Origin: Polynucleobacter corsicus
Lineage (GTDB): Bacteria; Pseudomonadota; Gammaproteobacteria; Burkholderiales; Burkholderiaceae
Reading direction: 5' to 3'
DNA length: 32,000 nt
Assembly (NCBI RefSeq): GCF_018688255.1
Contig: NZ_CP061314.1
Span: forward strand, 2,000,659 to 2,032,658
In this document: positions 233 through 15,616 of the stretch, in pieces
Layout of the letters: every line of letters starts with the position of its first letter
How positions within the stretch are numbered: the first letter of the stretch is position 1
Notes under the pieces: model-generated
The model's input: only the letters and a program-made list of their open reading frames with translations
The model's database searches: none
What the model was told of the DNA's origin: nothing
Translations under genes and position numbers: made by a program

Positions 233-799
233 TTATTTACAGGCTATTGCCATAGATGCTCTACTTTCTCTGGCCTTTTGAGCCATGAATTCAAAACGCT
301 CCCTAAGGTTGTTTTTCATAAAGTACTCAATGATGCTCGAGGGAATAAGGGTATGAGGCTCAACTAAAGCCTCATACCTAAAGATAGTTGAATCTTTGTC
401 TGGGAGAAGTTTCCAGCTACCTTTGTAGTACTTGGTATCGCCGCTAATTTGCTCAAAAGCCACCAAACGATTTGGTACCTCGGTGTATTCAATAGTAGAT
501 TTGAGCTCAATTAGAAAAAATAGAATTTGTTCTTCGATGACTCTATACACCCTCACCTTATTACCAAACCTAGAGATCACTTTTGATTCCAGTATTCCGG
601 GTATATTTTTTGCGCCCTCATAAGCAGTAATGAAAGCAAAAGCGCTACAGATATTTATTGGCACAGTGTAGGAAGCATCTATCTGAATGCGGCCATCAAT
701 TGCCCTAGTGCTCACGTGAACATCATAGGGATTTGAGTTTTCTTGTGCGTAGACCTGGGAAAGGAGCAAAACTAGGGCTACAGGAAAAATCCATTTCAT
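233..799 (-). CDS. secreted hypothetical protein, possibly SRPBCC/START-like fold
   Basis: 188-aa ORF with a clear Sec signal (MKWIFPVALVLLLSQVYAQ). Length and a Y-x-G-x-W-x-L pattern are reminiscent of SRPBCC proteins. The fold assignment is weak. Confidence 0.45.
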   Translation of the reverse strand: MKWIFPVALVLLLSQVYAQENSNPYDVHVSTRAIDGRIQIDASYTVPINICSAFAFITAYEGAKNIPGILESKVISRFGNKVRVYRVIEEQILFFLIELKSTIEYTEVPNRLVAFEQISGDTKYYKGSWKLLPDKDSTIFRYEALVEPHTLIPSSIIEYFMKNNLRERFEFMAQKARESRASMAIACK

Positions 800-825: not shown

Positions 826-906
826 TTGTCGTTTTAAACGACATTACCAGCACAAGGATGAATAATTGAAGTGTCCTTTTAAAGGACGGTCCATGATGGG
901 GATATC
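826..906. repeat. dual-palindrome intergenic repeat, copy 1
   Basis: Palindrome 1 is GTCGTTTTAAACGAC (828-842). Palindrome 2 is GTCCTTTTAAAGGAC (873-887). The conserved tail is CATGATGGGGATATC (892-906). Nearly identical to copy 2 at 4763-4842. Confidence 0.85.
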
Positions 907-989
907 TGAGACTAATGACCTCCTCCCAATAAATTGGACACCCTAAATTAGAAAAAATCGGCGATATTATCCCTAAGGAGGGGTGCGCC

Positions 990-1256
990 ATGAAGAGGTC
1001 AAAGTTCACAGAAGAGCAGATTAGTTTTGCATTGCATCAAGTCGATACCGGTACTTCGGTTGATGAGGTCTGTCGTAAGATCGGTATCGGCCAAGCTACT
1101 TTCTACAACTGGAAGAAAAAATATAGTGGCCTGGGTATTTCTGAGCTCAGACGCTTAAAGCAACTCGAAGAAGAGAACCGCAAGCTCAAGCAGTTGGTGG
1201 CTGATCTGAGTCTGGATAAAGCCATGCTGCAGGATGTTCTGCGAAAAAAGCTTTAA
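990..1256 (+). CDS. IS3-family transposase OrfA (HTH plus leucine-zipper region)
   Basis: 88 aa. FTEEQISFALHQV...ATFYNWKKKY is the typical IS3 OrfA HTH. It is followed by the coiled-coil LKQLEEENRKLKQLVADL. Confidence 0.9.
   Translation: MKRSKFTEEQISFALHQVDTGTSVDEVCRKIGIGQATFYNWKKKYSGLGISELRRLKQLEEENRKLKQLVADLSLDKAMLQDVLRKKL
1244..1250 (+). other. programmed -1 ribosomal frameshift heptamer A AAA AAG
   Basis: A6G lies in the orfA zero frame (cgA AAA AAG ctt taa), 4 nt before the orfA stop. orfB is open in the -1 frame across this point. Confidence 0.7.
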
Positions 1257-1306
1257 GGCCGGCGCAGCGTAAGCTGCTGGTCGGCCATCTCATTAAGCAA
1301 TACCGA

Positions 1307-2113
1307 GTGAGTGTGCAGCGCGCTTGCGCAGTATGCCAGCAAGCACGCTCAACCTGGTATCACAAACCCAAAGGCAAGCCATTCGATGTTCCTCTGAAGG
1401 CAAGGTTGCAAGAGATTGCCCGAACCCGTATTCGATATGGATTTAGGCGGATGTACATTCTAATTCGTAGGGATGGTTGGGTGGTCAATCACAAGCGGCT
1501 GTATCGCCTATATCGTGAAGAAGGCTTGAACCTTCGGTGCAAGCGGCCTAGGCGTCGCAAGGCAGCAGCCAGTCGTATGGAGAGGCCCATTCTGACAGGT
1601 CCTAATCAAGCATGGAGTATGGACTTCGTATCGGACGCCTTATTTAACGGCAATAAGTTTCGAGCCTTAACTTTGATAGATAACCACACCCGTGAGTGCT
1701 TGGCGATCTATCCCGCGCAAAATATTCGAGGTGATGATGTCGCATATTTACTAGGGCATATTGTTTTGCAAAGAGGTAAACCTTTGTGGATTCAAGCAGA
1801 CAATGGGCCGGAATTTATTTCCATTGCACTCGATCGCTGGGCTTATGACAACCAAGTCATCTTAGATTTTTCAAGGCCAGGAAAACCCACTGACAATGCC
1901 TTTATTGAATCCTTCAACGGTAGCTTACGAGACGAATGCCTGAACGTTCATTGGTTTATGTCGCTGGAAGACGCACAGGAAAAGCTTGAAAACTGGAGAC
2001 AGGATTACAATTGTTTTAGACCGCATTCATCACTAGGGGATCTCCCGCCAGCGATGTTTGCAAAGTCCTTTTGTAGTTCAACCACATCGCCTGATTTTCT
2101 AGCTCAGAGCTGA
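1307..2113 (+). CDS. IS3-family transposase OrfB (DDE/rve catalytic core), probably made as an OrfAB fusion
   Basis: DDE-type motifs WSMDF, IQADNGPEF and ESFNGSLRDE. The frame is -1 relative to orfA. The annotated start is only the first ATG in the ORF track. Confidence 0.9.
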   Translation: MSVQRACAVCQQARSTWYHKPKGKPFDVPLKARLQEIARTRIRYGFRRMYILIRRDGWVVNHKRLYRLYREEGLNLRCKRPRRRKAAASRMERPILTGPNQAWSMDFVSDALFNGNKFRALTLIDNHTRECLAIYPAQNIRGDDVAYLLGHIVLQRGKPLWIQADNGPEFISIALDRWAYDNQVILDFSRPGKPTDNAFIESFNGSLRDECLNVHWFMSLEDAQEKLENWRQDYNCFRPHSSLGDLPPAMFAKSFCSSTTSPDFLAQS

Positions 2114-2147
2114 CCGATTTGAGGGTGGAGGTCACTAAGGGGTCCAA

Positions 2148-2181
2148 CCCAAAAGAAAATAGCCCAACAAGTGGGCTATAG
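2148..2181 (-). terminator. displaced copy of the tRNA-Phe terminator hairpin
   Basis: CCCAAAAGAAAATAGCCCAACAAGTGGGCTATAG is identical to 4874-4907 and matches the hairpin downstream of the intact tRNA (11886-11913). Confidence 0.6.
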
Positions 2182-2196
2182 GTGTACGACCCGTGG

Positions 2197-2454
2197 TTCT
2201 TGGTGGCCCGGGGCGGAATCGAACCACCGACACAAGGATTTTCAAATATCCTCCGATAGACCGCTTTCGCTTTAATTTCAAAGGCTTGAGTGACCAGTCT
2301 CGACTTGTCTAAAAATTGTGCGTCCTTGTGCCGGTCAAATTTGGCAATGAAATCAGAATCTTGCGAGGGACTATTTTTCCGTGTGTACAGATTGTGTCGC
2401 CATACCCTACCAGTCAATCACCATAGTGTCTATGAATGTCGTTTTAAACGACAT
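2197..2454. repeat. 258-bp repeat, copy A (tRNA-Phe 3' half plus about 190 bp plus palindrome 1)
   Basis: Differs from 7133-7390 at only two positions by manual alignment. Ends in the 19-nt palindrome ATGTCGTTTTAAACGACAT (2436-2454). Confidence 0.9.
2201..2245 (-). pseudogene. tRNA-Phe 3'-half fragment (CCA end to anticodon loop); att remnant
   Basis: 45 nt identical to 11923-11967 of the intact tRNA. Identity stops inside the anticodon loop, and there is no 5' half. Confidence 0.85.
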
Positions 2455-2540
2455 AGAATCCCAATCTCTCCAATTGAGATTCATTCTCAATTATATGCTA
2501 AGATGAGAACAATTCTCATTAAGCATATTTGGCATTTAAG

Positions 2541-3980
2541 ATGTTTTTCTCATTTAGCACCAACCACACAGCCTTTTTCAGCCTAGTTAGCTCCCTTTGC
2601 TTGGTTGGGCTATCTTTGCCTGTCTATGCCGAGTCCCCCGTAAGCGATACCCCAATCGTTTTAGCTGAGTCACCCGTCAGTAGCGCTCCCACCATCGACA
2701 GTCCAGTCGCTCTCGAAAGTGCATCAGAGCAATGGAGTGTTCATGGGCAAGCAACCTACATCAATCAATTTAAAAATAACTTTAATTCTCCCTATTACGG
2801 ATCTAAGAGTCTTTTAAATAAATCTGATGGCGATATCTCTAAAAGCTATACCTTCTCAGCCACAGCATTTTTAGGAACGAGGCTATGGGAGGGTGCTGAA
2901 GCCTATATCAACCCTGAGATGTTTGAAGGCATTCCCTTTTCCGGTCTCAGCGGATTGGGTGGTTTTAGTAATGGTGAGCTACAAAAAGGAACGGCAATTC
3001 CACCAATCTATTACATGGCAAGAATGTTTTTACGCCAGACCTTTGGCTTTGGTGGCGGACAAGAGCATATCGAAGGTGTTGCTAATCAGTTAGCAGGTAA
3101 TGTAGATAAACGTCGCCTTGTAGTGACATACGGAACATTCTCGGCATTAGATTTCTTTGATGCCAATGCCTATAGCCATGATCCTCGCACACAGTTTTTA
3201 AACTGGTCGCTCATGGCCAGCGGTGCTTATGACTATGCCGCCAACTCTCGTGGCTACACCTATGGCTTTGTAGGCGAGTATTACCATGATGAAGAATGGG
3301 TGATGCGCCTAGCTCGATTGGCTATGCCCAAGTCACCAAATTCATTAGCCCTAGACTATGACCTCACACAGCAGTACGGCAATACAGCCGAGATAACTCA
3401 CCTTCATACGATTAATGGACAAGCTGGTAAGGCTCGAGTTCTAGTCTTTCAAAATCGCGGAATCATGTCTACCTATAACAATGCGATGAATTTTGGCCAA
3501 CAGAGCAATACCACTCCAGACATCTTAAGCACACGATATGGGTATCAAACTAAATGGGGCTACGCATTAAATGGCGAGCAAGCAATTACAGAAAATATTG
3601 GCGCCTTTGGAAGGTGGAGTTGGAATAATGGCCAAACTGAAACGCAAGCATTTACAGATATCAGCAATTCATTATCTGGCGGCCTATCCATTAAAGGTGC
3701 TGGTTGGGGAAGACCACAAGACACTATTGGAATTGGTGCGGCACTCAATGGAATCTCATCACAACAAATTAGCTACCTACAAAAAGGTGGTGTAACGATG
3801 TTCATTGGCGATGGCAGACTCAACTATAAGAAAGAACAAATCTTTGAAACTTTCTACAGCTGGAATGTTTATAAGAGTCTGTCGCTATCTGCCGACTATC
3901 AGCGTATCGCAAATCCTGGATACAACACAGATCGTGGGCCAGTCAATTTCTATGGATTAAGAGCCCACATTGAAATGTAA
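2541..3980 (+). CDS. carbohydrate-selective porin, OprB family
   Basis: Signal peptide ends ...LPVYA-ESP. OprB-type motifs are FLNWSLMASGAYDYAANSRGYTYG and a beta-barrel C-terminus. ATG 2541 is preferred over the TTG at 2529. Confidence 0.8.
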   Translation: MFFSFSTNHTAFFSLVSSLCLVGLSLPVYAESPVSDTPIVLAESPVSSAPTIDSPVALESASEQWSVHGQATYINQFKNNFNSPYYGSKSLLNKSDGDISKSYTFSATAFLGTRLWEGAEAYINPEMFEGIPFSGLSGLGGFSNGELQKGTAIPPIYYMARMFLRQTFGFGGGQEHIEGVANQLAGNVDKRRLVVTYGTFSALDFFDANAYSHDPRTQFLNWSLMASGAYDYAANSRGYTYGFVGEYYHDEEWVMRLARLAMPKSPNSLALDYDLTQQYGNTAEITHLHTINGQAGKARVLVFQNRGIMSTYNNAMNFGQQSNTTPDILSTRYGYQTKWGYALNGEQAITENIGAFGRWSWNNGQTETQAFTDISNSLSGGLSIKGAGWGRPQDTIGIGAALNGISSQQISYLQKGGVTMFIGDGRLNYKKEQIFETFYSWNVYKSLSLSADYQRIANPGYNTDRGPVNFYGLRAHIEM

Positions 3981-4006
3981 TCGCATTGATCCTTTATAGT
4001 GCCGAC

Positions 4007-4759
4007 ATGTCTCTTTTGCGATGTTCACTTAAGCCCCTCAAGTTAGCGCCTTATTTGCTTTGCTTGAGTAGCATTGTATTTGCGGCACCTTTTGAGATTA
4101 AGGTTCACGACGAACTCATTGCAGAATATCAAGAATCTGCTTTTGAAGTAGAAACAAACTTATTTCAAGCTCCGGCGTCCCAAGGCCTAAAGTCAAATGT
4201 CTTTCAAACTAGGCTTGAGTATAGCTATGGTATTACTGAAAAAAGTGAGATTGGTGCCAACATCTACTTGAGCAACTACAACGGCGTGAGCTATGTTAAC
4301 GGTGGCAAGATAAGTCATATGTATATTCCAACTCATGATGAGGAGGGCTTATGGCACTACGGGGTGAAGAATGAGATTAATTACATCAAAGATGTAGGCG
4401 GCACAGAAACTACCTTTTATGAATTAACTCCTATCTTGGCACTTCAACTTCAAGACTGGAGATTTACCATCAACCCAAGCGTTGATGTGACATTAAATAA
4501 AAATAGCTCAGCTACATTTTCGCCGTCTGCTAAAGTGGCTTATGAGCTAACGCATGCCGTTGATGTTGGTATGGAGTACTACGGAGATAACCTGCCTAAT
4601 AAAAGTTTATACAACATCTCTCAACAGCCCCATACTGCCTATCTGGTCATGGATGCCAAACATGGCAAGTCATCGTTTAACTTTGGTATTGGTAAAGGTG
4701 TCACGGCTAATAGTGACAATTGGGTGATTAAACTCATAGCCTCACTGAGCTTTAATTAG
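4007..4759 (+). CDS. hypothetical exported protein, possibly an outer-membrane beta-barrel
   Basis: Signal-like N-terminus (LAPYLLCLSSIVFAAP). Alternating hydrophobic pattern rich in Y/G/N. Lies 26 nt downstream of the porin. ATG 4007 is preferred over TTG 3986. Confidence 0.5.
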   Translation: MSLLRCSLKPLKLAPYLLCLSSIVFAAPFEIKVHDELIAEYQESAFEVETNLFQAPASQGLKSNVFQTRLEYSYGITEKSEIGANIYLSNYNGVSYVNGGKISHMYIPTHDEEGLWHYGVKNEINYIKDVGGTETTFYELTPILALQLQDWRFTINPSVDVTLNKNSSATFSPSAKVAYELTHAVDVGMEYYGDNLPNKSLYNISQQPHTAYLVMDAKHGKSSFNFGIGKGVTANSDNWVIKLIASLSFN

Positions 4760-4762
4760 TGA

Positions 4763-4842
4763 TATCGTTTTAAACGACATTACCAGCACAAGGATGAATA
4801 ATTGAAGCGTCCTTTTAAAGGACGCTTCATGATGGGGATATC
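4763..4842. repeat. dual-palindrome intergenic repeat, copy 2
   Basis: Palindrome 1 is TCGTTTTAAACGA (4765-4777). Palindrome 2 is AGCGTCCTTTTAAAGGACGCT (4806-4826). The tail CATGATGGGGATATC is at 4828-4842. Confidence 0.85.
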
Positions 4843-4880
4843 CCGCTCTAATGGCGTCTAACCCTGCCAAGACCCAAAAG

Positions 4881-4937
4881 AAAATAGCCCAACAAGTGGG
4901 CTATAGAGATTCTTGGTGGCCCGGGGCGGAATCGAAC
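4881..4937 (-). pseudogene. terminator hairpin plus 24-nt tRNA-Phe 3' fragment (CCA end to T-loop); att remnant
   Basis: 57 bp identical to 11890-11946. The tRNA part is 4914-4937, and identity ends inside the T-loop (..AATCGAAC). Confidence 0.8.
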
Positions 4938-5015
4938 TAGGGCCGAGGATGCCTGATCCAAGCTCTTTTTAATTTCGTTGTACTCAAATCGAGCTTTTGG
5001 ATTTACCTTGGAATG

Positions 5016-5417
5016 TTACTGAGCCCATTGCTCACAAAGTACAGTTGGGTTTCCATAGCCCCGCCCATTTTCCATTCCAGAATTCATGCAATAGTTAAAT
5101 CTTTCTAAAGCACGCCCAGTTAAGCCTGTGTTGTATACGCCCGCTCCTGACGTTCCTACTGAAGGAGGCGGCCCCCCAGAGCAAACCAATTGACCGTTTT
5201 GTGCAGAGATATTCGTACATTGGGTGGCATTTGTAAGTCTTGCCGCTACCCATTGGCCTCGCCCATTCTGACAAGACGCTACCATAGTTGTCCCCTCCAT
5301 AGCTGATGCTTGACATGAATTAGACCAATTGCCAGGAATCATTCGATATGGCTGAGCATTTGTCTGAAATGCAAGAAGTGTGAAGAAAGTAAAAACCGAT
5401 ACTCTAAGAAATAACAT
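5016..5417 (-). CDS. small secreted Cys-rich protein with a cyanovirin-N-like (CVNH) half-repeat pattern
   Basis: Sec signal is MLFLRVSVFTFFTLLAFQTNAQ. NWSNSCQASAMEGTTMVASCQNGRGQWVAARLTNATQCTNISAQNGQLVC resembles the CVNH pattern sC..(g)..L.A.C....G.w....L...C..i.N.nG.L. The domain call is tentative. Confidence 0.55.
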   Translation of the reverse strand: MLFLRVSVFTFFTLLAFQTNAQPYRMIPGNWSNSCQASAMEGTTMVASCQNGRGQWVAARLTNATQCTNISAQNGQLVCSGGPPPSVGTSGAGVYNTGLTGRALERFNYCMNSGMENGRGYGNPTVLCEQWAQ

Positions 5418-5536
5418 GGCAGTTCCTTTTAATTATTTAAATATCCGTTGGTGATAAGAACAAACTTAATCTCCCTCTCTTTGGAGGCTGTACTTCAGAG
5501 TGAAGTCATACTGTCTGGCAAAAAGCATGCTGGACA

Positions 5537-6784
5537 TTAACGCAAGAGAATTCCTGGTGATACTGGGATACTGCCAGGGACTTTATTAAGGCTTAGTAAT
5601 TGCGAAATAATCTTCAAGACCATTGGCGAATAGCCGTTATCGTTTGCTGGAATACTATGAACATCGTCATCAATATTTTTTACTCTTGCAAAATTTTTAT
5701 TACTTGAGTCATTTTTTCTGACAATCAATAAGGCATATTGATTTTCTTGGCCGATTTTTCGAGCTTGAGTAGTTGCTGATGGAGGCAATGTAACAATGAA
5801 GGGGTTTTCTTGATTCTGGGCGGATACTACCTGTCCAAGATATTCGAAGACTGTATTGGGTGATCGAATGGTTAAGATTAGTTCAGATTTAGAGCTCTTA
5901 TTTTTAGGGGCGTTTAGACTTGCTTTGCAAAAAATGTCAGAGCTAAATTCTTCTTTAACAAAGTTGGCAAATTTGTTCTCATCAACGCAAATCTTAAATT
6001 GAGGTTGCAGTTGCATTTGGCCGTACATTCCACCATAAGCACCGGATGATCCACCATACCCGCCATACCCACCTGGACTTTGATAAGACGATGGCATGTT
6101 AGGTTGTGAATAGTTTGCTGTTCTACCTAATGCAGGAGAACTATTTTTCTTTGGCCCCTCTTTGACCTGATCAACAGTCAAGCCGTAACTTAGCAACTTA
6201 TAAAGCTCGGCTTGGAAGGCGGGATATTCTGGTAAAAGCGGATTGTTTATATACCGAGTAGATTTACCATCAGCTTGCTTAATTTCAATTGAAGCAACTA
6301 CTAGACTAAACATTACCTCTCTTGGGATGTTATCGGAAATAAAAAACTTGGCAGTTCCAATAGGGATTTGAGATAAAAATCCTTGCAGAAAAGTGGCATT
6401 ATCAAGTGAGGACTGGGAAAAGTTAAAACTATTACCAAAGGATGGTGCAAGAGTCGGGCTAAGTGAGCTTATGCCAAGAGGGCCGCCCGCAAGTCCTCCA
6501 ATGAAACCATTCATTGATGGACCTAATCCTGTATTAAAACTTACATTTCCAGATCCATTGATGCTGGGAATATCTAGAAAACTTAAAGGGCGCTCATTGG
6601 ATGCGCGGATGATATTAATCAGGATGCTATTTAATTGGTACTGCTCCAAAATGATAGCGTAGCGTGCCGACATCTCTGTAAAGTCTGGAGTGACGGGAGT
6701 AGTGCAACCCCCAATCAATATTGTTATTGAAATTGAGCTACAAATTGCTTTGATGCCATTAATGATGGTGGAATTCACTGACAC
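5537..6784 (-). CDS. lipoprotein of unknown function with a Gly/Tyr-rich low-complexity segment
   Basis: Lipobox-like ILIGGC near the N-terminus. Internal SYQSPGGYGGYGGSSGAYGGMYGQMQ. I recognise no family. Confidence 0.6.
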   Translation of the reverse strand: MSVNSTIINGIKAICSSISITILIGGCTTPVTPDFTEMSARYAIILEQYQLNSILINIIRASNERPLSFLDIPSINGSGNVSFNTGLGPSMNGFIGGLAGGPLGISSLSPTLAPSFGNSFNFSQSSLDNATFLQGFLSQIPIGTAKFFISDNIPREVMFSLVVASIEIKQADGKSTRYINNPLLPEYPAFQAELYKLLSYGLTVDQVKEGPKKNSSPALGRTANYSQPNMPSSYQSPGGYGGYGGSSGAYGGMYGQMQLQPQFKICVDENKFANFVKEEFSSDIFCKASLNAPKNKSSKSELILTIRSPNTVFEYLGQVVSAQNQENPFIVTLPPSATTQARKIGQENQYALLIVRKNDSSNKNFARVKNIDDDVHSIPANDNGYSPMVLKIISQLLSLNKVPGSIPVSPGILLR

Positions 6785-6920
6785 CCCAAGAATTGAACTA
6801 TGTTCGAAATCTAGGTCGGTAGGTTTGGCAAGATGCCAAGTCAGCTCAGAGGTCTGTTGGAATCATACTAACTGATTACAGTTGGTGATGGAGTATATAA
6901 AGGGTAAACACTTGAAATAT

Positions 6921-7053
6921 TTGTCGTTTAAAACGACATCGCAAGCACCGGCCCTAGATGACAGTCGCTTAAATAGACGCAGGACCGACACAGGGATGAC
7001 AAATCCCCAATAAATAAAGCGTCCTTTTAAAGGACAGTTCATGATGGGGGGAT
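6921..7053. repeat. dual-palindrome intergenic repeat, copy 3 (expanded spacer)
   Basis: Palindrome 1 is GTCGTTTAAAACGAC (6923-6937). Palindrome 2 is GTCCTTTTAAAGGAC (7021-7035). The tail CATGATGGGGGGAT is at 7040-7053. The spacer is about 50 bp longer than in the other copies. Confidence 0.8.
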
Positions 7054-7132
7054 GTGAACGGCAACTGTAAACTATGTGGTCGGTACCGGACGTAAAGCAT
7101 GTGTCCGGTACGGACCCGGTACGGACCGGTAT

Positions 7133-7390
7133 TTCTTGGTGGCCCGGGGCGGAATCGAACCACCGACACAAGGATTTTCAAATATCCTCCGATAGACCGC
7201 TTTCGCTTTAATTTCAAGGGCTTGAGTGACCAGTCTCGACTTGTCTAAAAATTGTGCGTCCTTGTGCCGGTCAAATTTGGCAATGAAATCAGAATCTTGC
7301 GAGGGACTATTTTTCCGTGTGTACAGATTGTGTCGCCATACCCTACCAGTCAATCACCATAGTGTCTATGAATGTCGTTTAAAACGACAT
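7133..7390. repeat. 258-bp repeat, copy B
   Basis: 256/258 identical to 2197-2454. Ends in the palindrome ATGTCGTTTAAAACGACAT (7372-7390). Confidence 0.9.
7137..7181 (-). pseudogene. tRNA-Phe 3'-half fragment; att remnant
   Basis: 45 nt identical to 11923-11967, diverging inside the anticodon loop. Confidence 0.85.
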
Positions 7391-7404
7391 TTCAACTGGC
7401 GTTC

Positions 7405-8451
7405 TTAAATTAGCGGTGGGAATGTATACCCATCAACTTTAAATACTTTTAAGCAAGCGTTAACGACATCAGCATCAAATAGCTTGTCACTACCCATAGC
7501 GATTTCTTCTAATGCGGCATCTATACCTTTACCTTTTCTGTAAGGGCGATCAGATGACATTGCCTCTACTGTGTCTGCCACACCCAGAATACGAGCCTCC
7601 TCACAGACAATATCGCCTTTAATTGCGTTGGGGTAGCCACTGCCATCCAAACGCTCATGATGCTGAAGAACTGCTTGAGCAATATTCCAAGGAAAGTGAA
7701 TATGTTTGAGCATGTCATAGCCAGCTTGAACATGATTCCTAAGCATGGCGACCTCAAAGTTGCTTAGGGCGATGGGCTTTGTGAGAATTTCTGCGGAAAT
7801 AGAAATTTTGCCAATATCGTGAACTAAGGCGGCCATACGAACACCTTCAATGGTATGTATGGGCAAATTCATTTCCGTGGCAATTGCCACAGCCAAATTT
7901 GCCACGCGCTTTTGATGTCCGCCCGTATATGGATCGCGAGCAACAATGACATTGGCTAAAGTGTCAACCATTTCGTTCATAGAAATGTTGACTGAGTGCT
8001 GATACTCGAGCAACTCCTTTTCTAGCTTTTTTCTATCTGAGATGTCGCGAATATTACATTGAATAACGCGGTCGCCATTAACGCCATAGGCATTGCTGAT
8101 AAACTCTACATTAATAATCTCTTCATCTTTTCGTTTTAATGGGAGATCTTCATAGCGTATGTAGCCCTTGTCTTTGAGCACGGTAAAGGCTGTTAAAGCC
8201 GCGGCTTTATCTACCATCGCGCCAATTTCCCACAACTCTTTACCGATGAGCTCATCTCTTGTAAAGCCCAGTAGGTTAGTAATGAATGGATTAGCGTCTT
8301 GAATGACTCCCGTTTGAAAATCAAGTATCAAGATACCATCTTGAGCGGTCTCAAATAATCGCCTATAGCGTAGCTCTGATTGTTTGGCTAACTGTTCTTT
8401 GTTTAAATCGTTTGTCATCAATATATTTGGTGAAATCAATAAATCCACCAT
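7405..8451 (-). CDS. PAS-domain HD-GYP protein (predicted c-di-GMP phosphodiesterase)
   Basis: N-terminal PAS ([16 protein letters not shown]...[25 protein letters not shown]). HD-GYP motifs are VHDIGK and [11 protein letters not shown]. Confidence 0.9.
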
Positions 8452-8554
8452 CCTCTTGATTTCAGTGTATACCCATTAATTCTGATGGTTATAGACTTTT
8501 AGTCTATTTAAGAGCTTAATTGAATCAATCTATCTTTTAGATGCGAGGAATATT

Positions 8555-9394
8555 TTGTACATAGCAATTAGCCTTTACAGCTTGTCTTTACTTTGCCAGG
8601 TTGTCGCATCATTAATTAGTCTTTCGTTATTTCGATATTCAGCAAAAGTATATCGTTTTCCTTGGCTTTTACTCGCTATAGGCTTGGCAATGATGATTGG
8701 GCGAAGAATGAATCCCATTCTTCATATATTCGAAACCGATCATTATGATTTAATAGACGCCCTCTTATCTCTACCAATTTCTGGTTTTTTATTACTTGGA
8801 GTGCTTGGTCTTAGAAAATTACTCCTCAAGTCTGACGATAAACAACTGACACTTGAAACTCTTGCTCAATTTGACCCCCTCACCAACAGCTTAAGTCGCA
8901 CTGAAATTCTTTATCGAGCCTCTGAAGAAATTGATCGATCACGCAGAAATAAACATTCCTTTGCGCTTTTAGAAATGGACATTGACCATTTTAAAAATGT
9001 AAACGATCTGCTTGGTCATCATGTTGGCGATGAAGTCTTAATTAATTTAGTAAGGCACTCCCAAGAAGCCCTTCGCTCTATCGATTCAGTTGGACGAATT
9101 GGTGGAGAAGAATTTCTAATTCTTTTGCCAGAAACAGAAGCCGAGGGAGCCGCTCAAATTGCCGAGCGTTTGCGTAAACATATTGCTAACGCGATAAATG
9201 ATACGAGCGCCCCAATACCAGTAAAAATCACCATTAGTATTGGGGTGACGATTTTTGAGCCAAATGAAAACCATAGAATTGCGCGTGGAATAGTGCTCAA
9301 TGAACTCATGAATAAAGCTGACTTAGCAATGTATCAAGCTAAAAATGAAGGGCGAAATCGTGTTGCCTTTTGGAGCGCCTCTACCCCCCCTTAA
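8555..9394 (+). CDS. membrane-anchored GGDEF diguanylate cyclase with an I-site
   Basis: Hydrophobic N-terminal helices. Active site is GGEEF, preceded by RSID (RxxD) five residues upstream. TTG start lies 5 nt after GAGGA. Confidence 0.85.
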   Translation: MYIAISLYSLSLLCQVVASLISLSLFRYSAKVYRFPWLLLAIGLAMMIGRRMNPILHIFETDHYDLIDALLSLPISGFLLLGVLGLRKLLLKSDDKQLTLETLAQFDPLTNSLSRTEILYRASEEIDRSRRNKHSFALLEMDIDHFKNVNDLLGHHVGDEVLINLVRHSQEALRSIDSVGRIGGEEFLILLPETEAEGAAQIAERLRKHIANAINDTSAPIPVKITISIGVTIFEPNENHRIARGIVLNELMNKADLAMYQAKNEGRNRVAFWSASTPP

Positions 9395-9406
9395 GAGGGC
9401 ATGATA

Positions 9407-10351
9407 TTAAAAAGGAATGATTAATTCTTCCATCACATAGCGATAAAAGTAATTGGGGCCTAAAAACCCAGCAGACTTTCCATAACCAGCACGAGTCTTA
9501 AAGTAATAGTCATTTGATGCTACCGGACTGGTTGCCGCGAACTCATAAAGTTGTGTAGTGGTACTTGGATCTTGATTGACTGTTTGCCGCCCAACACCTG
9601 CTGTGCCACTGAGCATCCAACCCGCCATTCTTTTTCTTGCCCCAAACGCAATCATCGTTTCGTTATAGGTTGATGGGTTGAAATAGTTATTAGCAACATT
9701 GGTATTGGTATCCCTAAATTGGCGATAACGCAGTTGCGCCGTTAGCCCGTAGTCTGGCACTAGGTCGTAAATGAGCTTTGCCCTCACTATTGGCCTTGTA
9801 TTAGTGTCAGAGAAATACATATTGGCACCCATCAATATCGCAGTTAAACGCTCAAGAACTTGTTGCTCAATGCTCACTCCGCCAAGCGTGTAATAGATTC
9901 CATTGTTTAAGGAGTTTTGCGTCTCCACTCTATCTCGATTAACAATCACTTCAGCTTTTGTAGAGTCTGTTACGCGAAATCCATAATTACTATCAGTTGT
10001 AACTAATTGATGGCTATTCTCAGTGTTGTAACCAATATTGAGGTTATAGCCTAGAGCTGTTCGCGGATTAATTGCCTTTGTCATTAACGTATATTGCTCA
10101 CCTGTTGAGCTCCAGCCGCCTTGCGTAAAGTAATTGTGCTGATAGGTAATGCCTGTATATTTTTCACCATGCTCGTACAAAGGTAGGTAGCCTGCCTTGT
10201 ATTTGTATGTAGAAAACCCTTCGCTATCGGAGCTGAAATACACATTCGGCACTGAAATAGCCTGCTTTGTTTGCTCTGTCTCTTCTTCGGCATTCGCATG
10301 AGAACTAAACAGTATGGAGATCATTAGAAAAATCTGAACTATTCTTTTCAT
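9407..10351 (-). CDS. outer-membrane beta-barrel protein of unknown family, coupled to the GT2 synthase
   Basis: Signal peptide is MKRIVQIFLMISILFSSHANA. Y/G/N/T-rich alternating pattern with a C-terminal ...ELIIPF. ATG 10351-10349 overlaps the synthase TGA (10350-10348) as ATGA. Confidence 0.7.
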   Translation of the reverse strand: MKRIVQIFLMISILFSSHANAEEETEQTKQAISVPNVYFSSDSEGFSTYKYKAGYLPLYEHGEKYTGITYQHNYFTQGGWSSTGEQYTLMTKAINPRTALGYNLNIGYNTENSHQLVTTDSNYGFRVTDSTKAEVIVNRDRVETQNSLNNGIYYTLGGVSIEQQVLERLTAILMGANMYFSDTNTRPIVRAKLIYDLVPDYGLTAQLRYRQFRDTNTNVANNYFNPSTYNETMIAFGARKRMAGWMLSGTAGVGRQTVNQDPSTTTQLYEFAATSPVASNDYYFKTRAGYGKSAGFLGPNYFYRYVMEELIIPF

Positions 10352-11649
10352 TTCGTTCCCCAAGATTTACGAAGATTTAACAGCTCAGAAAAATATCCAT
10401 AAACACAAGCGGGCTGAAGCACTAAGCCATAGGCAAAAACATAGGATAAGAAGCCCAACATATTTGCCCGGACCGTTAAATGCTCAGCATTAAACATCGC
10501 CTTGCCCTTTAAATACATTTGCCAATTGAGTAAAAAAGCCATCGGCAATAGTGATAGCGTCATGGGGCCTGCTATCCAATAGATGCCAAAACAAGCCAGG
10601 ATTAGTCCAGGGATAAATCCAAAAGTAAAAGCAATATCCATTAGTGGAAACAATGTATTCCACCAAATGTATAGTGTTGAAAATCTTGGCTTAACAAGAA
10701 TCGTGGGGTTGTCCTTAAAAGCTTCTATCAATCCCCGTGACCAACGCCTTCTTTGGTGTATGAATTTACTTAAAGTATTGGGGCAATCCGTAAAAGCCAA
10801 AGCATCCTCAGCATGTCCCACTCTATAGCCTGCTGACAAAATTCTCCAAGTCAGTACGATATCTTCACCGACCATCTCTGGCCAACCGCCCAATTCCAAA
10901 ACTGTTTTACGGTCATACAAAGAGAATGCGCCTTGGGCAACTAAAGTACCTTGGAATAAAGACTGAATTCGCTTGATAGTCGCAATACCTAAAAAGTAAT
11001 CCCACTCCTGCGCCTTGGTAACCCAGTTTTCTCTTGAATTGCGAATGAGAATTTCTCCAGCAACTGCTTTGGTATTGATTGGATCGGAGAGGTATCGACC
11101 AACTAAGTGACGGACGCCATCTTTCAATATATAGCTATCAGCATCGATTGAAATAATAATATCCGTCGTACATTTTGCCAAACCATGATTGAGAGCGGAC
11201 GCTTTGCCACCGTTACGCCCTAAATCAATGAGCTCTAAATTGGGATGAGCCAACTGTAATGCTTTAACAGAATCGACAGTCTTATCACTAGAGCCATCAT
11301 TAATCACAATGATGCGAATATCTGCTGGGTAATCCTGTAGAAAAATTCCTGACAGAGATGAAGCTATTGATGCCCCCTCGTTATAGGCGGCGATTAATAT
11401 AGTGACCGGAGGGTAATGCTGATCAAGTATCACTTTTGGGCGGCGATCTAGTAGAAGAGCCATGGCCACAAAAGCATTCATAAAGCCTGGAACAATAGCT
11501 ACAAATGTAATGACGAAATAAGCGAGGAATGTTCCTATTTCATTGCTCAGGTCTGAATACCAGGGCTGGGAATGCCAAAAAGAAAATCCCATCCAACTTA
11601 AGGAAAATAGTAGTGAAACGATAAATTTTCCTTTTACTGAAAAATACAA
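10348..11649 (-). CDS. family-2 processive beta-glycosyltransferase (PgaC/IcaA/NodC-like synthase)
   Basis: N- and C-terminal TM helices flank a GT-A domain. Motifs are ILIAAYNE, INDGSSD, SIDADS, GED and QRRRWSRG (Q-x-x-R-W). Confidence 0.85.
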   Translation of the reverse strand: MYFSVKGKFIVSLLFSLSWMGFSFWHSQPWYSDLSNEIGTFLAYFVITFVAIVPGFMNAFVAMALLLDRRPKVILDQHYPPVTILIAAYNEGASIASSLSGIFLQDYPADIRIIVINDGSSDKTVDSVKALQLAHPNLELIDLGRNGGKASALNHGLAKCTTDIIISIDADSYILKDGVRHLVGRYLSDPINTKAVAGEILIRNSRENWVTKAQEWDYFLGIATIKRIQSLFQGTLVAQGAFSLYDRKTVLELGGWPEMVGEDIVLTWRILSAGYRVGHAEDALAFTDCPNTLSKFIHQRRRWSRGLIEAFKDNPTILVKPRFSTLYIWWNTLFPLMDIAFTFGFIPGLILACFGIYWIAGPMTLSLLPMAFLLNWQMYLKGKAMFNAEHLTVRANMLGFLSYVFAYGLVLQPACVYGYFSELLNLRKSWGTK

Positions 11650-11701
11650 AGGATTCCACCAAAATTTATAATTGTTCAGAATACTCCCTGATGGGATTGT
11701 T

Positions 11702-11785
11702 TTGTCGTTTTAAACGACATTGACTGACACAGGGATGTTTAATTGACATGTCCTTTAAAAGGACATTTGATGACCCTGATATCCC
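11702..11785. repeat. dual-palindrome intergenic repeat, copy 4 (divergent)
   Basis: Palindrome 1 is GTCGTTTTAAACGAC (11704-11718). Palindrome 2 is ATGTCCTTTAAAAGGACAT (11748-11766). The tail is degenerate. Confidence 0.75.
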
Positions 11786-11885
11786 AGTCTAGAACCAGAG
11801 TGGCTGAATCCTGATTGACGGATTAAATCTATGGGATTTGACTAAACATGCTAGGCGCAAGGTCTAAGCACCATTAAGCACTAGA

Positions 11886-11913
11886 AATAAAAATAGCCCA
11901 ACAAGTGGGCTAT
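11886..11913 (-). terminator. Rho-independent terminator of tRNA-Phe
   Basis: On the minus strand: ATAGCCCA-cttgt-TGGGCTAT followed by TTTTTATTT, 9 nt after the tRNA 3' end. Confidence 0.75.
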
Positions 11914-11922
11914 AGAGATTCT

Positions 11923-11998
11923 TGGTGGCCCGGGGCGGAATCGAACCACCGACACAAGGATTTTCAATCCTCTGCTCTACCGACTGAGCTACCAGGCC
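11923..11998 (-). tRNA. tRNA-Phe (anticodon GAA), 76 nt with encoded CCA
   Basis: Reverse complement is GGCCTGGTAGCTCAGTCGGTAGAGCAGAGGATTGAAAATCCTTGTGTCGGTGGTTCGATTCCGCCCCGGGCCACCA. It folds as a cloverleaf: 7-bp acceptor stem, anticodon loop TTGAAAA, T-loop TTCGATT. Confidence 0.95.
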
Positions 11999-12002
11999 AA
12001 GA
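11960..12002. repeat. attL-type 43-bp direct repeat (tRNA-Phe anticodon loop to 5' end plus 4 nt)
   Basis: ATTTTCAATCCTCTGCTCTACCGACTGAGCTACCAGGCCAAGA is identical to 22025-22067. Confidence 0.85.
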
Positions 12003-12007
12003 CTGCT

Positions 12008-12013
12008 ATTATA
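12008..12013 (-). promoter_or_regulatory. candidate -10 box (TATAAT) driving tRNA-Phe, supplied by the island side
   Basis: On the minus strand TATAAT sits 9 nt upstream of the tRNA 5' end. A second TATAAT (22074-22079) sits 10 nt beyond the displaced 5'-half copy. The -35 is weak. Confidence 0.4.
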
Positions 12014-12265
12014 CGCAAACTGTTCTTAAAGCTGTTAAAAAATCCTCTACTGTGCGTTTCCACCTTGTAGTTATCAGCCTTTCTGCTGTATGCACGCTAT
12101 ACAAAATAGTTTTCACTGTGTCCATTTTGTCCCACTGTAAAAACCCTGCGTTTACTTAAACCACACCCTACAAGCACACAAAACCTACCAAAATATTGCT
12201 GTTAGCAGTTGTAGCACACCAAAAATCAGGTTGTCCTTGTACTGTGCTGACACTACGCTATAAAA

Positions 12266-13519: not shown

Positions 13520-13539
13520 GCGTAAATTTTTTTTACGCT
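13519..13539. repeat. 21-bp palindrome family, copy a (AGCGTAAA-ttttt-TTTACGCT)
   Basis: 8-bp inverted arms and a 5-nt T-rich spacer. Overlaps the last base of the integrase stop codon and lies 10 nt from the REase stop. Confidence 0.85.
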
Positions 13540-13549
13540 TGCCACTTAG

Positions 13550-14602: not shown

Positions 14603-14625
14603 AAAAGGCAGGATACATCAAACTA

Positions 14626-15558
14626 TTAATTTTTAGAACTTTTAATATATTTGATAATTGATTTAGCAACTTCTTGTATCGCATCAACGGCAACACTATT
14701 ACCAAGCTGTTTCATTGCCTGACCTTTGGCAACAGGAAATTGAAAATCATCAGGGAATCCCATCATCTTCTTCCCTTGTTCAACGCCCAACCTCTTTACT
14801 TGTCCATCCACTAAGTAAGCATCCCAATTTCTTCTATCATCTATGCCTGAGCCTTTTCCTCCAACCCGAAGAGTAAAGCCAATCTCCCGAGAACATTCAC
14901 CACCCCAAACATCAGACATATTAAATTTCAATTCTTTTTTGTCAGGAAATTGAAATGGCTCTTTGTAATCATCTTCTTTGCGGAAACCAATAATAAAAAT
15001 TCTCGGTCTATGCTGTGGTAGCCCGTAGTCAGAAGCTTTCACGACCTTGTAGTGAATGTCATACTCAAGTTCTACTTGTAGTATTTGCTTAATTACATCA
15101 AATGTTCTGCCAGTGTCGTGATTTTGTAGGTGCCTTACATTTTCCAAAAAAAATGCTTTGGGTCTCTTAGTTTTTAATATGTCTCTAATGTGAAAAAACA
15201 TATTACCCCGTGACTCATGTTCTTCATTAAATCCCTTTTTATGTCCAGCCTGTGAGAAAGGCTGACAAGGAAATCCCGCACAAAGAATGTCATGATCAGG
15301 AATATCATCAGGATCAATATTTGTAATGTCGTCATTAAATAAGGGACTATCAAACATATCTTCGCTAAACAAGTTAGGCGAGATGGACTTAAAGTTTTCT
15401 TTATAAGTCTTGCGGGCGAAAGGATCTTTCTCAGACGCAAATACGCATTCACTCCCTTCATTATGAAATGCGATGTGGAAGCCGCCAATTCCTGCGAACA
15501 GATCAATAAACTTAAGTTTATTTTTGTTTGATTTGGATGGTTTGCGTGTTTTATTCAT
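14626..15558 (-). CDS. DNA (cytosine-5)-methyltransferase
   Basis: Canonical C5-MTase motifs: I DLFAGIGGF, IV GFPCQPFS, VI ENV, VIII QHRPRIFIIG, X GNSVAV. The variable region is short. Confidence 0.92.
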   Translation of the reverse strand: MNKTRKPSKSNKNKLKFIDLFAGIGGFHIAFHNEGSECVFASEKDPFARKTYKENFKSISPNLFSEDMFDSPLFNDDITNIDPDDIPDHDILCAGFPCQPFSQAGHKKGFNEEHESRGNMFFHIRDILKTKRPKAFFLENVRHLQNHDTGRTFDVIKQILQVELEYDIHYKVVKASDYGLPQHRPRIFIIGFRKEDDYKEPFQFPDKKELKFNMSDVWGGECSREIGFTLRVGGKGSGIDDRRNWDAYLVDGQVKRLGVEQGKKMMGFPDDFQFPVAKGQAMKQLGNSVAVDAIQEVAKSIIKYIKSSKN

Positions 15559-15589
15559 AGTGATTTATTTTTTAATTATATTGTCTTTT

Positions 15590-15610: not shown

Positions 15611-15616
15611 TATTTT

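Follow-up and report, generated by a model that had tools for sequence, protein, structure and literature searches.

Three integrase-less blocks standing side by side at the tRNA-Phe gene of Polynucleobacter corsicus were probably inserted successively by tyrosine-integrase recombination at this gene, the integrase being supplied in trans. The window analyzed is a stretch of 32,000 nt, to which all coordinates refer, and the region studied (826-11998) would be one half, the 3' side, of a composite hot spot for integration into tRNA-Phe of the Polynucleobacter chromosome. The genus is one of the most abundant bacterial genera in fresh water, with an ecological micro-diversity that has been attributed to small genomic islands. 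The locus shows island building at base-pair detail, with one tRNA gene, both of its sides, and two crossover points in use; short integrase-less blocks, which bring porin, c-di-GMP signaling, and polysaccharide genes, are piled up there and move between diverged lineages. The arrangement looks like CIME-like or tycheposon-like accretion, a known kind of mobile DNA that is unusually clear and widespread here, and the CIME-like accretion put forward in the original prediction, which was made from the sequence alone, is supported.

Genomic Context of the tRNA-Phe Locus

A single tRNA-Phe(GAA) gene was located by ARAGORN at 11923-11998 on the minus strand. Exact copies of the 24-mer at its 3' end start at 2201, 4914, 7137, and 11923, and no occurrence was found in 100 shuffles. 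Three of the four copies belong to displaced fragments on the minus strand. Those at 2201-2245 (the oldest junction, where the array ends distally) and 7137-7181 (block 3/block 2 junction) comprise 45 tRNA-identical nucleotides each and stop in the anticodon loop; that at 4914-4937 (block 2/block 1 junction) comprises 24 nt and stops in the T-loop. The blocks are thus marked by exact 45-, 24-, and 45-nt repeats of the tRNA 3' end, as predicted and as for a tRNA-integrating island. Re-alignment of 2197-2454 with 7133-7390 reproduced the 256 identities in 258 positions given originally; one of the two mismatches falls at 2282/7218 and the other at 2445/7381, in the central position of a palindrome. 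The terminator hairpin ATAGCCCACTTGTTGGGCTAT with its T-run was found in three copies (11893-11913, 4884-4904, and 2159-2179), each after the tRNA or a fragment. The associated "dual palindrome" of the original prediction corresponds to two elements, Pal1 (GTCGTTTWAAACGAC, six copies) and Pal2 (GTCCTTTWAAAGGAC, four copies), with none of these 10 sites expected by chance.

Structure and Gene Content of the Blocks

Block 1 begins with a P arm at 2246-2455 on the minus strand (A-type arm258), which is identical to 7182-7390 in 207 of 209 positions and ends in Pal1 (2437-2453). Its cargo (2456-4760, plus strand) encodes an OprB-family porin (2529-3980) and a 257-aa outer-membrane-like protein (3986-4759), followed by the P' arm (4761-4913, minus strand) with the terminator (4884-4904), Pal2 (4809-4823), and Pal1 (4763-4779). 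Block 2 has a P arm of the short T-loop type (4938-4990, minus strand), which reads ...GGATCAGGCATCCTCGGCCCTA in the tRNA sense, then the fragment, and fits the consensus of about 30 such metagenome arms. The block 2 cargo (5016-6784, minus strand) comprises genes for a 415-aa lipoprotein-like protein (5537-6784) and a 133-aa Cys-rich secreted protein (5016-5417), both with no Pfam matches; the P' arm (6920-7136, minus strand) contains a GC-rich hairpin (~7080-7130), Pal2 (7021-7035), and Pal1 (6922-6938). In block 3, the P arm (7182-7391, minus strand) is again of the A-type arm258, with Pal1 (7373-7389) at its distal end and a core-proximal GCGGTCTATCGGAGGATAT that is kept across the arm family. 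The cargo (7392-11700) lies on both strands and includes a PAS and HD-type (HD_5) protein gene (7405-8451, minus), a GGDEF cyclase gene (8555-9394, plus), a gene for a 318-aa secreted protein (9407-10363, minus), and a GT2 glycosyltransferase gene (10348-11649, minus). The P' arm (11701-11922, minus strand) carries the terminator hairpin (11893-11913), Pal2 (11750-11764), and Pal1 (11703-11719). No Pfam family was assigned to the 257-aa protein of block 1 or the 318-aa protein of block 3.

The distal flank unit (826-2200, minus strand) consists of the terminator (2159-2179), an IS, Pal2 (873-887), and Pal1 (827-843), the last just upstream of a gene for an SRPBCC (polyketide-cyclase-like) protein (233-799, minus strand), a conserved chromosomal neighbor that closes the array in many Polynucleobacter. 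The IS3-family IS occupies 916-2134, with a CTAA target duplication, and contains orfA (990-1256) and orfB (1307-2113). The layout of three fragment-bounded blocks proposed earlier holds, but this splitting of the leftmost unit had been overlooked.

A Pfam search of every block ORF with 100 aa or more revealed no recombinase in the three blocks, and four tyrosine recombinases used as queries (tblastn and jackhmmer) had no matches within 826-11922; in the whole window, they matched only 12266-13519 and 18291-18857. The predicted lack of an integrase in every block was therefore borne out by all three methods. The blocks combine features of CIMEs: no integration, excision, or transfer genes were detected by Pfam, tblastn, or jackhmmer, and the flanks are attL and attR of an integrase-bearing family, in the form of tRNA fragments with P and P' arms.

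Island E1

An integrase-bearing island of 10 kb, E1 (12003-22021, plus strand), uses the same anticodon loop from the 5' side of the gene; it falls just outside the coordinates covered by the original prediction and is absent from it. E1 encodes its own integrase (12266-13519; Phage_integrase, phrog_1), whose gene lies 268 nt past the tRNA 5' end, an HpaII-like restriction-modification pair (13550-15558), a clamp-loader-like AAA+ protein (17523-18227), a 188-aa XerD-like recombinase (18291-18857), a Polynucleobacter-1 RNA (20481-20619, minus strand), and a DUF6641 protein (20786-21256). Its far att site is a displaced 5' half of tRNA-Phe (22022-22067, minus strand), a 46-nt repeat with one mismatch to 11957-12002. 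Positions 32-76 of the present tRNA-Phe, the 3' part, were supplied by block 3, and the 5' part with 4 nt upstream by E1. No relaxase or type IV secretion genes were found in E1 with Pfam, NCBIfam, and PHROGs, and on the replication side, profile searches of this type detected only the clamp-loader-like AAA+ protein in the E1/E2 core. The identity of the E1 integrase to phage integrases in the collection searched was at most 26.5%. It is 46% identical to the 424-aa integrase family cognate to the blocks (see below), the E1 arms differ and lack Pal1 and Pal2, and the crossover region is read in the opposite orientation; any helper in the genome of the window is therefore only putative. At corresponding places, E1 carries palindromes of a family of its own, one of them ~215 nt from the crossover. 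The related contigs L019 and L022 do not contain E1.

Distribution in Related Genomes and Metagenomes

The 20-mer spanning the arm/tRNA junction was detected in 109 metagenome contigs, and ~9 nt beyond the searched pattern were at least 95% conserved among 98 distinct arm copies. Among the 62 blocks with complete boundaries (0.5-9.9 kb), only one, of 9.7 kb, had an integrase, although counts of integrase-less and integrase-bearing elements are biased by the lengths of metagenome contigs. The cognate island family (8-10 kb) encodes a 424-aa integrase and has the same junction and homologous arms as the window. Its members, e.g., in L191, L149, and L122, are bounded by Pal1-arm-junction and T-Pal2 arms, which identifies the arms in the window as genuine att arms, and are arranged in the order T-Pal2-int...DUF6641-Pal1-cargo-Pal1-arm-junction. 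An integrase with homologous arms, of the kind that the original prediction proposed to look for in the genome, was found in metagenomes; the window has no such integrase.

The arms fall into subtypes. Next to subtype A, that of the window, an integrase core was found in none of the 15 informative cases, and next to subtype B in 21 of 22. The A-type arms, 81-92% identical, adjoin at least 21 unrelated cargos. The first ~105 nt of the A-type arm are 81-90% homologous to the region directly upstream of the integrase gene in L187 and L145, which links the integrase-less and integrase-bearing forms and, by sequence similarity, suggests one ancestral deletion. However, the arm subtypes are segregated, and no cargo common to an integrase-less block and an integrase-bearing element was found, so neither deletion of the core nor capture is directly documented. 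The two arms of the window are 99% identical, against a family median of 67% identity to the window's copy; this agrees with the recent events proposed earlier, but could also be explained by intragenomic gene conversion.

The arm consensus AGGATnAGnCATCCTnGGCCC is common to the 24-nt fragment of the window and about 30 other fragments, 22-26 nt in length, and the T-loop junction class with its conserved arm also occurs in an isolate genome (CP061287). Since these fragments recur with a common arm consensus, the T-loop crossover represents a real second class and not an ad hoc deletion, a later deletion having been one of the two explanations offered originally for the two crossover positions.

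Both empty and occupied sites were found rather than the same blocks everywhere, so that the original prediction withstood its own refutation test. Locus L192 is empty and consists of tRNA-Phe, 92 nt, and the SRPBCC gene; L191, L190, L193, L194, L195, L196, and L160 are occupied, with differing contents. The SRPBCC proteins of L191 and L192 are identical, and their 92-nt flanks are the same but for one base. The insertion in L191 is limited by the tRNA at the anticodon loop and by an arm with the displaced 45-nt 3' fragment, so that the empty site equals the occupied one minus the element and one repeat. Insertions in the relatives likewise start at the anticodon loop and finish with a displaced 3' fragment. 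Over 2759 nt, the whole of block 1 matches L160 at 91.3% identity; the SRPBCC gene flanking the array there reaches just 67%, with an additional block lying between this gene and the block 1 homologue. The same cargo was also seen in different arrays (C5, C1, C3, and C13).

Model of Integration and Alternative Explanations

In the favored model of successive integration, the attP of an incoming circle would have a P arm on one side of the crossover region and, on the other, a P' arm with the new tRNA 3' part, terminator, Pal2, and Pal1. Integration would restore the tRNA and move the old 3' part and all behind it away from the gene, so that the internal junctions become attP-like hybrids, in which the P arm of the newer element is joined through the tRNA fragment to the P' arm of the older one. 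This hybrid nature of junctions between two neighboring elements was also not mentioned in the original prediction. From the nesting of the tRNA fragments, the blocks are placed in the order 1, 2, 3: block 1 (2246-4913) would have entered at the anticodon loop, block 2 (4938-7136) at the T-loop, leaving just 24 nt on block 1, and block 3 (7182-11922) at the anticodon loop again. The IS would have arrived after the blocks. The cognate recombinase for blocks 1 and 3 would be the 424-aa integrase of the 8-10 kb island family. Against the model, the survey detected neither excised circles nor contigs with terminal overlaps, and Pal1 or Pal2 is missing from many integrase-less blocks elsewhere, as in decaying remnants.

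This loss of palindromes would also fit in situ decay, the classical origin of CIMEs, whereby complete islands arrived and lost their integrase and core by deletion to leave immobile scars; such an origin is possible but appears doubtful. The three-step scenario is the textbook one (PMC5704250), a T-loop-type arm in L191 is fused directly to Pal2 with loss of the tRNA fragment, and in L187 and L145 the integrase leader is joined to the distal part of an A-type arm. Decayed B-type islands, however, would leave B-type arms, which does not fit the distribution of the integrase between subtypes or the A-type arms beside so many unrelated cargos; moreover, blocks 1 and 3 keep complete arms and undecayed fragments, and tblastn and jackhmmer found no integrase remnant in the blocks of the window. 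Homologous-recombination shuffling, in which the att units are mere homology anchors for DNA from other Polynucleobacter with no site-specific step, is unlikely. The arms and fragments (45-260 nt, 80-99% identical) are long enough for anchors, break points of homology are enriched 6-fold at Pal1, 3.5-fold at fragments, and 3-fold at the anticodon-loop crossover, block 1 lies between diverged flanks in L160, and additive flexible islands are on record for the genus (bioRxiv 10.1101/2022.03.25.485477). Nevertheless, shuffling leaves unexplained the precise fragment ends at the anticodon loop or T-loop in every block and the nested 45/24/45 pattern predicted by sequential integration.

The enrichment at Pal1 is expected in any case, as the conserved arms end there, and this weakens a further proposal, quite improbable overall, that the 17-21-nt Pal1, found at the border of every cargo, is the site of the 188-aa XerD-like recombinase of the helper islands and that cargo is swapped there in the manner of integrons, within a constant 560-bp att backbone. 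Pal1 does flank the cargo of blocks 1 and 3, as it does in many relatives, and also lies between most modules of the integrase island; the E1 palindromes occupy equivalent places, and the Pal1 beside the SRPBCC gene is hybrid-like, its left half matching a P' arm and its right half the native flank. However, inversions between Pal1 sites, which a perfect palindrome should permit, were not observed among the 109 loci, one Pal1 falls within the reading frame of the integrase, and A and T are equally frequent as the centre base, giving no asymmetric spacer. An assembly artefact, with the repeats being mis-joined reads of one repeat, can practically be dismissed: two 258-bp repeats 99% identical lie 5 kb apart and related contigs often break at repeat units (L019 and L022), but the architecture recurs in over 100 independent contigs from metagenomes, as well as the finished isolate chromosome CP061287, and the cargo is unique to each block, with P' arms that are likewise distinct.

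Returning to successive integration, blocks 1 and 3 would behave as a hitch-hiking cargo lineage, since subtype A occurs only in integrase-less form and with many cargos. It is conceivable, if rather speculative, that the A-type blocks are a self-perpetuating non-autonomous cassette lineage, which spreads among Polynucleobacter species with an integrase borrowed from resident islands and acquires new cargo at its Pal1 borders, with tRNA-Phe as an integron-like platform. In such a lineage, the ~560-bp backbone (Pal1, arm, crossover, tRNA 3' part, terminator, Pal2, and Pal1) would have been born once, by internal deletion in an integrase island, and the platform would be complemented by even smaller single-gene T-loop cassettes. 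If the A-type blocks are truly mobilized in trans, they would be a tyrosine-integrase counterpart of MITEs or integron cassettes and allow cheap trading of single traits between streamlined genomes, and the conserved junction found in the metagenomes could serve as a practical tag for flexible genes in lakes.

Comparison with Known Systems

CIMEs and the tandem accretion of ICESt1/ICESt3-type elements were reportedly described by Pavlovic in 2004 and Bellanger in 2011. As in that system, the blocks keep attL and attR without integration genes, stand in tandem with integrase-bearing kin at the same target, have internal hybrid att sites, and show evident accretion and deletion, in line with the CIME definition and accretion/deletion scenario (PMC5704250). 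In contrast, the host here is a streamlined betaproteobacterium of fresh water and the target one of its tRNA genes, and searches of the helper islands with Pfam, NCBIfam, and PHROGs found no conjugation genes. The integrase-less forms also have an arm subtype of their own and at least 21 cargos, and so look more like a lineage that propagates than like single products of decay. Tycheposons, the tRNA-proximal flexible islands of Prochlorococcus (Hackl et al., bioRxiv 10.1101/2020.12.28.424599), share successive integrations that drive older elements inward, partial tRNAs between elements, degenerate remnants, and ecologically relevant cargo in a planktonic, streamlined host. They differ in that the core here consists of the clamp-loader-like AAA+ protein, the 188-aa XerD-like recombinase, DUF6641, and the Polynucleobacter-1 RNA instead of a primase/helicase, both tRNA halves are used, and palindromes lie between modules. 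Additive flexible genomic islands are known in Polynucleobacter (Hoetzinger 2017 and Lopez-Perez 2013, via bioRxiv 10.1101/2022.03.25.485477); the portion of this flexible-island literature covered here does not describe the att anatomy, arm subtypes, two crossover classes, or integrase-less lineage.

The small units, mostly of 1-4 genes, with short structured repeats and a recombinase platform alongside resemble integron cassette arrays. Unlike integrons, the locus has no IntI, attI, or attC; the recombination sites consist of tRNA fragments and their 50-260-nt arms, cargo genes point either way, and Pal1 is a perfect 17-21-nt palindrome rather than attC. Integron-integrase models gave only 60 bits against a cut-off of 265, on the E1 188-aa recombinase alone, and an integron was rejected. 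Burkholderia P2-like prophages, from the same bacterial family, carry a 45-46-nt tRNA-Phe 3' segment beside the integrase gene, implying the same anticodon-loop crossover, but the match is confined to the tRNA part (93.5% over 46 nt), and the arms, integrase, and cargo are unrelated.

Architecture of the tRNA-Phe Array

The sole tRNA gene in the window, tRNA-Phe(GAA), is located at 11923–11998 on the minus strand. Its final 24 nt were found in four perfect copies in the window (starting at 2201, 4914, 7137, and 11923) and in none of 100 shuffles. The fragments at 2201–2245 and 7137–7181 are 45 nt long, with identity back to the first anticodon-loop base, and the identity of the 24-nt fragment at 4914–4937 reaches into the T-loop. 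The sequences 2197–2454 and 7133–7390 were identical at 256 of 258 positions. A terminator hairpin lies behind tRNA-Phe and behind two of its fragments. The window has six copies of one palindrome, Pal1 (GTCGTTTWAAACGAC), and four of another, Pal2 (GTCCTTTWAAAGGAC), all of them between 826 and 11764. Read in the tRNA sense (right to left in the window), each unit comprises the tRNA or a 3′ fragment, the terminator hairpin, Pal2, Pal1, and cargo, followed by Pal1, a ~210-nt arm, and the 3′ fragment that opens the next unit. From this constant order, the intercargo sequence can be described as a ~560-bp block with Pal1 at either end. The 24-nt fragment at 4914–4937 has no 210-nt arm and is preceded instead by the short sequence GGATCAGGCATCCTCGGCCCTA.

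Three cargo blocks are delimited in this way: block 1 (2246–4913; an OprB porin and a 257-aa protein), block 2 (4938–7136; two secreted proteins), and block 3 (7182–11922; PAS-HD, GGDEF, a 318-aa protein, and GT2). No recombinase was detected among their ORFs. The original prediction, made from the sequence alone, had described tRNA fragments of these lengths, each with a terminator and/or palindromes, a nearly identical 258-bp arm repeat, and blocks devoid of integrases; since the exact 24-mer matches with 100 shuffles, the direct comparison of the repeats, the mapped terminators and palindrome copies, and the ORF content agree with it on all these points, that description was accurate.

The leftmost unit (826–2200) is split by an IS3-family insertion sequence (916–2134; orfA 990–1256, orfB 1307–2113) with inverted repeats TGACCTCC... 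and a 4-bp target duplication CTAA, which sits between the terminator and Pal2 of this distal unit. With the insertion sequence removed, the unit is 90% identical to 4761–4913. At its end, the insertion sequence matches part of the metagenome locus L182 with 97% identity. The 258-bp repeat was also considered as a known RNA and as a protein-coding sequence, and both were rejected: Rfam gave nothing above threshold in the arms, and the ORF crossing the repeat (2016–2417) had no Pfam match. Its matches on phages or plasmids were confined to the tRNA part.

Related Occupied and Empty Sites

The flanking FAA-hydrolase gene assigns the window to Polynucleobacter; the closest DNA matches are 83–86% identical, and the comparisons cover related populations. 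Exact copies of five window proteins, SRPBCC, FAA hydrolase, the PAS-HD protein, and the integrase among them, were sought in public assemblies, with no hit. The SRPBCC gene at 233–799 is a conserved chromosomal gene of Polynucleobacter; the related loci L192 and L191 share an identical SRPBCC protein with each other. L192 represents an empty site, in which tRNA-Phe is followed by 92 nt and SRPBCC. In L191, ~9.3 kb lie between tRNA-Phe and the 92 nt of L192 (one base different), and this insert terminates in Pal1, the arm, the junction, and a 45-nt fragment. The contents of the tRNA-Phe/SRPBCC site differ again in further contigs and in the finished chromosome CP061287. The same design with other cargo was observed in L022 (tRNA-Phe, terminator, Pal2, Pal1, two secreted proteins, Pal1, arm, and 45-nt fragment). 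Block 1 recurs in L160 with 91.3% identity over 2759 nt; the SRPBCC flank of that locus is just 67% identical, and an additional block is present between the block 1 homologue and SRPBCC. The invariant set of blocks that would speak against the proposed accretion of att-flanked elements was thus absent from relatives, with L192 empty and L191 and others variably filled.

The 5′ flank of tRNA-Phe is variable too, as shown by its neighbors: a YcaO gene abuts tRNA-Phe in L192 (1–1236), whereas class II aldolase, TctC, and FAA-hydrolase genes intervene in the window (22180–24953), and the FAA-hydrolase gene has no adjoining tRNA-Phe in most Polynucleobacter genomes.

Integrase Island E1

The original prediction described the blocks correctly but overlooked an integrase just past the 5′ end of the tRNA. 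A gene encoding a 417-aa tyrosine integrase (12266–13519) begins 268 nt past the tRNA-Phe 5′ end; it points away from this end. The tRNA-Phe 5′ half with 4 nt upstream (11957–12002) recurs at 22022–22067 (46 nt, one mismatch), and this direct repeat implies that a 10-kb island, E1 (12003–22021), occupies the same anticodon loop and carries the tRNA 5′ half. Islands usually carry the tRNA 3′ part, and the polarity of E1 is the reverse. The E1 empty site is represented by the MAG contigs L019 and L022, in which tRNA-Phe directly adjoins the FAA-hydrolase gene.

The island contains an HpaII-like restriction–modification pair (restriction endonuclease and C5 cytosine methyltransferase, 13550–15558), a clamp-loader-like AAA+ protein, a 188-aa XerD-like recombinase, DUF6641, and the Polynucleobacter-1 RNA (Rfam RF01718; 20481–20619, minus strand). 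For the E1 integrase, a sequence search retrieved no relative of solved structure. In E1 and L122, the two islands in which its copy was positioned, the Polynucleobacter-1 RNA lies 115–170 nt upstream of the DUF6641 gene in divergent orientation; of 10 related integrase islands examined for it, L187, L149, L155, L183, and L124 contain it as well. Given this recurrence, the RNA looks like a core part of the island family.

E1 has a palindrome family of its own (GCGTNAA, T-rich centre, TTNACGC; GCGTAAA...TTTACGC), which differs from Pal1. Its copies (13508–13541, 15579–15612, 16586–16619, 18220–18253, and 21798–21816) occupy intergenic borders and a place ~215 nt from the E1 crossover, and their positions mirror those of Pal1 in a related island family with a 424-aa integrase.

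Cognate Integrase and Arm Subtypes

In ~25 contigs, the sequence upstream of the junction is an 8–10 kb island with the E1 gene set. Its integrase comprises 424 aa and is 46% identical to that of E1; the island also encodes AAA+, two unknown proteins, the 188-aa recombinase (51%), the Polynucleobacter-1 RNA, and DUF6641 (58%). From the tRNA 3′ part, the island proceeds through terminator, Pal2, integrase, core genes, and DUF6641 to a Pal1, a little cargo, a second Pal1, the arm, and the junction. By this match, the borders of the window blocks correspond to the P′ and P arms, which flank the crossover in the attP of the 424-aa island family. The core-proximal arm sequences of E1 (CTACCGTAGGAGTAT) and of the 424-aa family (CTATCGGAGGATAT) are similar. 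Relative to the integrase gene, the two read the loop oppositely, and hence one island type carries the tRNA 3′ part and the other the tRNA 5′ half.

The arms divide into subtypes, those of blocks 1 and 3 belonging to subtype A. Among junctions with enough upstream sequence, the island core preceded none of the 15 of subtype A and 21 of the 22 of subtype B. The A-type arms (81–92% identical to those of the window) adjoin at least 21 unrelated cargos. In L187 and L145, the stretch immediately preceding the integrase gene is homologous (81–90%) to the first ~105 nt of the A-type arm. The proximal half of this arm aligns with B-type arms at roughly 60% by visual comparison and has the motifs TTCTGATT, AAATTTTGACCG, and GCGGTCTATCGGAGGATAT in common with them. 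Two scenarios fit these sequences: the A-type backbone may have originated from a deletion that brought the stretch preceding the integrase gene into contact with the proximal arm, or a deletion may have fused an A-type block to an adjoining island. Direct proof of a core deletion was not obtained, as cargo located beside the integrase module never recurred in the bounded integrase-less blocks in which it was sought.

Junction Survey and T-Loop Class

The 20-mer CGGAGGATATTTGAAAATCC, joining the arm and the anticodon loop, was present in 109 metagenome contigs and 0 viral contigs, diverged junctions being missed by this exact search. When the tRNA halves, the tRNA fragments, and both palindromes were mapped on the 109 contigs, 62 blocks bounded on both sides emerged, from 0.5 to 9.9 kb in length, among which the share of small blocks is inflated by the shortness of metagenome contigs. 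The cargo fell into 130 clusters among 258 segments, and the same cargo recurs across different arrays. A search for contigs representing a single block as a circle or with a tandem junction found none.

Fragment lengths fall into groups of 45 nt and of 22 or 26 nt. A conserved arm (AGGATnAGnCATCCTnGGCCC) precedes about 30 of the short fragments, in many cases with a palindrome resembling Pal1 ~35 nt away. Because so many short fragments share the conserved arm, the T-loop crossover forms a recurrent class, in line with the two crossover positions originally suggested; the 24-nt fragment of the window agrees with its consensus. An integrase of this class was not found, and the only other recombinases seen (L150 and L173) belong to other junction types. 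T-loop blocks with one to five genes were observed in CP061287 and L196. These compact blocks (L196 1–2230; L195 5169–10000, from CP061287) have a ~40-nt arm, the last 22 nt of the tRNA, and a terminator; L196 comprises two blocks with a single gene each, and those of L195 have up to five genes. They resemble integron cassettes, one example being in the finished genome of a cultured isolate (CP061287).

Palindromes Pal1 and Pal2

Several roles for the palindromes were rejected. They are not genome-wide REP elements: of 80 Polynucleobacter/Burkholderiales loci, 78 have neither, and their occurrence is restricted to the surroundings of tRNA-Phe. As an intrinsic terminator, Pal1 forms a weak hairpin (−7.8 kcal/mol) without a U-tract; Pal2 is more terminator-like. 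A shufflon-like inversion site was discarded, since an inverted segment flanked by Pal1 was seen in no locus except L104. This palindromic contig (5514 nt) has the junction on both strands and 1344-nt inverted terminal copies; it is the sole apparent case of inversion among the loci and is probably chimeric, a product of assembly.

The centre base of Pal1 is A or T in equal numbers (65:65). Pal1 is found at most module borders of the 424-aa integrase island, and empty sites have a half-site ~30 nt ahead of the SRPBCC gene. One perfect Pal1 lies within the 424-aa integrase reading frame (WQCRFKRHD; codons for CRFKRH, about residues 57–62), as in L122 2177–2191, L149 268–282, L191 1657–1671 (oriented coordinates), and others. 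This position is near the probable end of the N-terminal domain, and the corresponding place of the E1 integrase has no palindrome.

Proposed Mechanism and Alternatives

The att logic of the locus is described here along the general lines of arm sites of the lambda type and of sublocation classes in tRNA genes. On integration at the anticodon loop or T-loop, the P′ arm of the element would restore the tRNA and the old 3′ part would be displaced. In consequence, the newest element would adjoin the tRNA gene and the internal junctions would be attP-like hybrids, which would explain why the terminator and palindromes accompany each fragment. Judging by the fragments, block 1 would have arrived first, at the anticodon loop, then block 2 at the T-loop, leaving 24 nt of the block 1 tRNA part in place, and finally block 3 at the anticodon loop, displacing a 45-nt part with its final 24 nt from block 2; such an order would yield the nested 45/24/45 pattern. 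E1 could have arrived at any time relative to the blocks. Blocks 1 and 3 retain complete arms, lack any trace of an integrase, and belong to an arm subtype that was never seen joined to one; they are best read as putative non-autonomous elements whose movement would depend on an integrase provided in trans. The E1 enzyme is a candidate helper for them, although the E1 arms carry neither Pal1 nor Pal2.

Simple in situ decay of complete islands explains some of the relatives but leaves the segregation of arm subtypes unexplained. Exchange by homologous recombination via the conserved units probably contributes to the variation, although the precise nested fragments would not be produced in this manner. 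A cassette system based on Pal1 has a low probability. Homology break points are six-fold enriched at Pal1, but the conserved arms end there anyway. The palindrome is more likely to be an operator or architectural protein-binding site than a recombination site. An assembly artefact is excluded, as the architecture is present in a finished genome and in independent contigs numbering more than 100.

Comparison with Known Systems

The locus works in the manner of CIME/ICE accretion (PMC5704250) and of the tycheposon islands of Prochlorococcus (bioRxiv 10.1101/2020.12.28.424599), and it fits the ‘additive’ islands described for Polynucleobacter (cited in bioRxiv 10.1101/2022.03.25.485477). It differs from known systems in the helper core module, in the use of a single tRNA at two crossover points and through either half, in the punctuation of modules by palindromes, and chiefly in a distinct, cargo-rich, integrase-less arm lineage. 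Burkholderia P2-like phages also carry this 45–46-nt tRNA-Phe segment, and in phages of the Burkholderia pseudomallei group (H1–H8) the 46-nt tRNA-Phe 3′ segment overlaps the integrase annotation; this phage segment indicates that crossover at the anticodon loop of tRNA-Phe is common to unrelated integrases in the same bacterial family.
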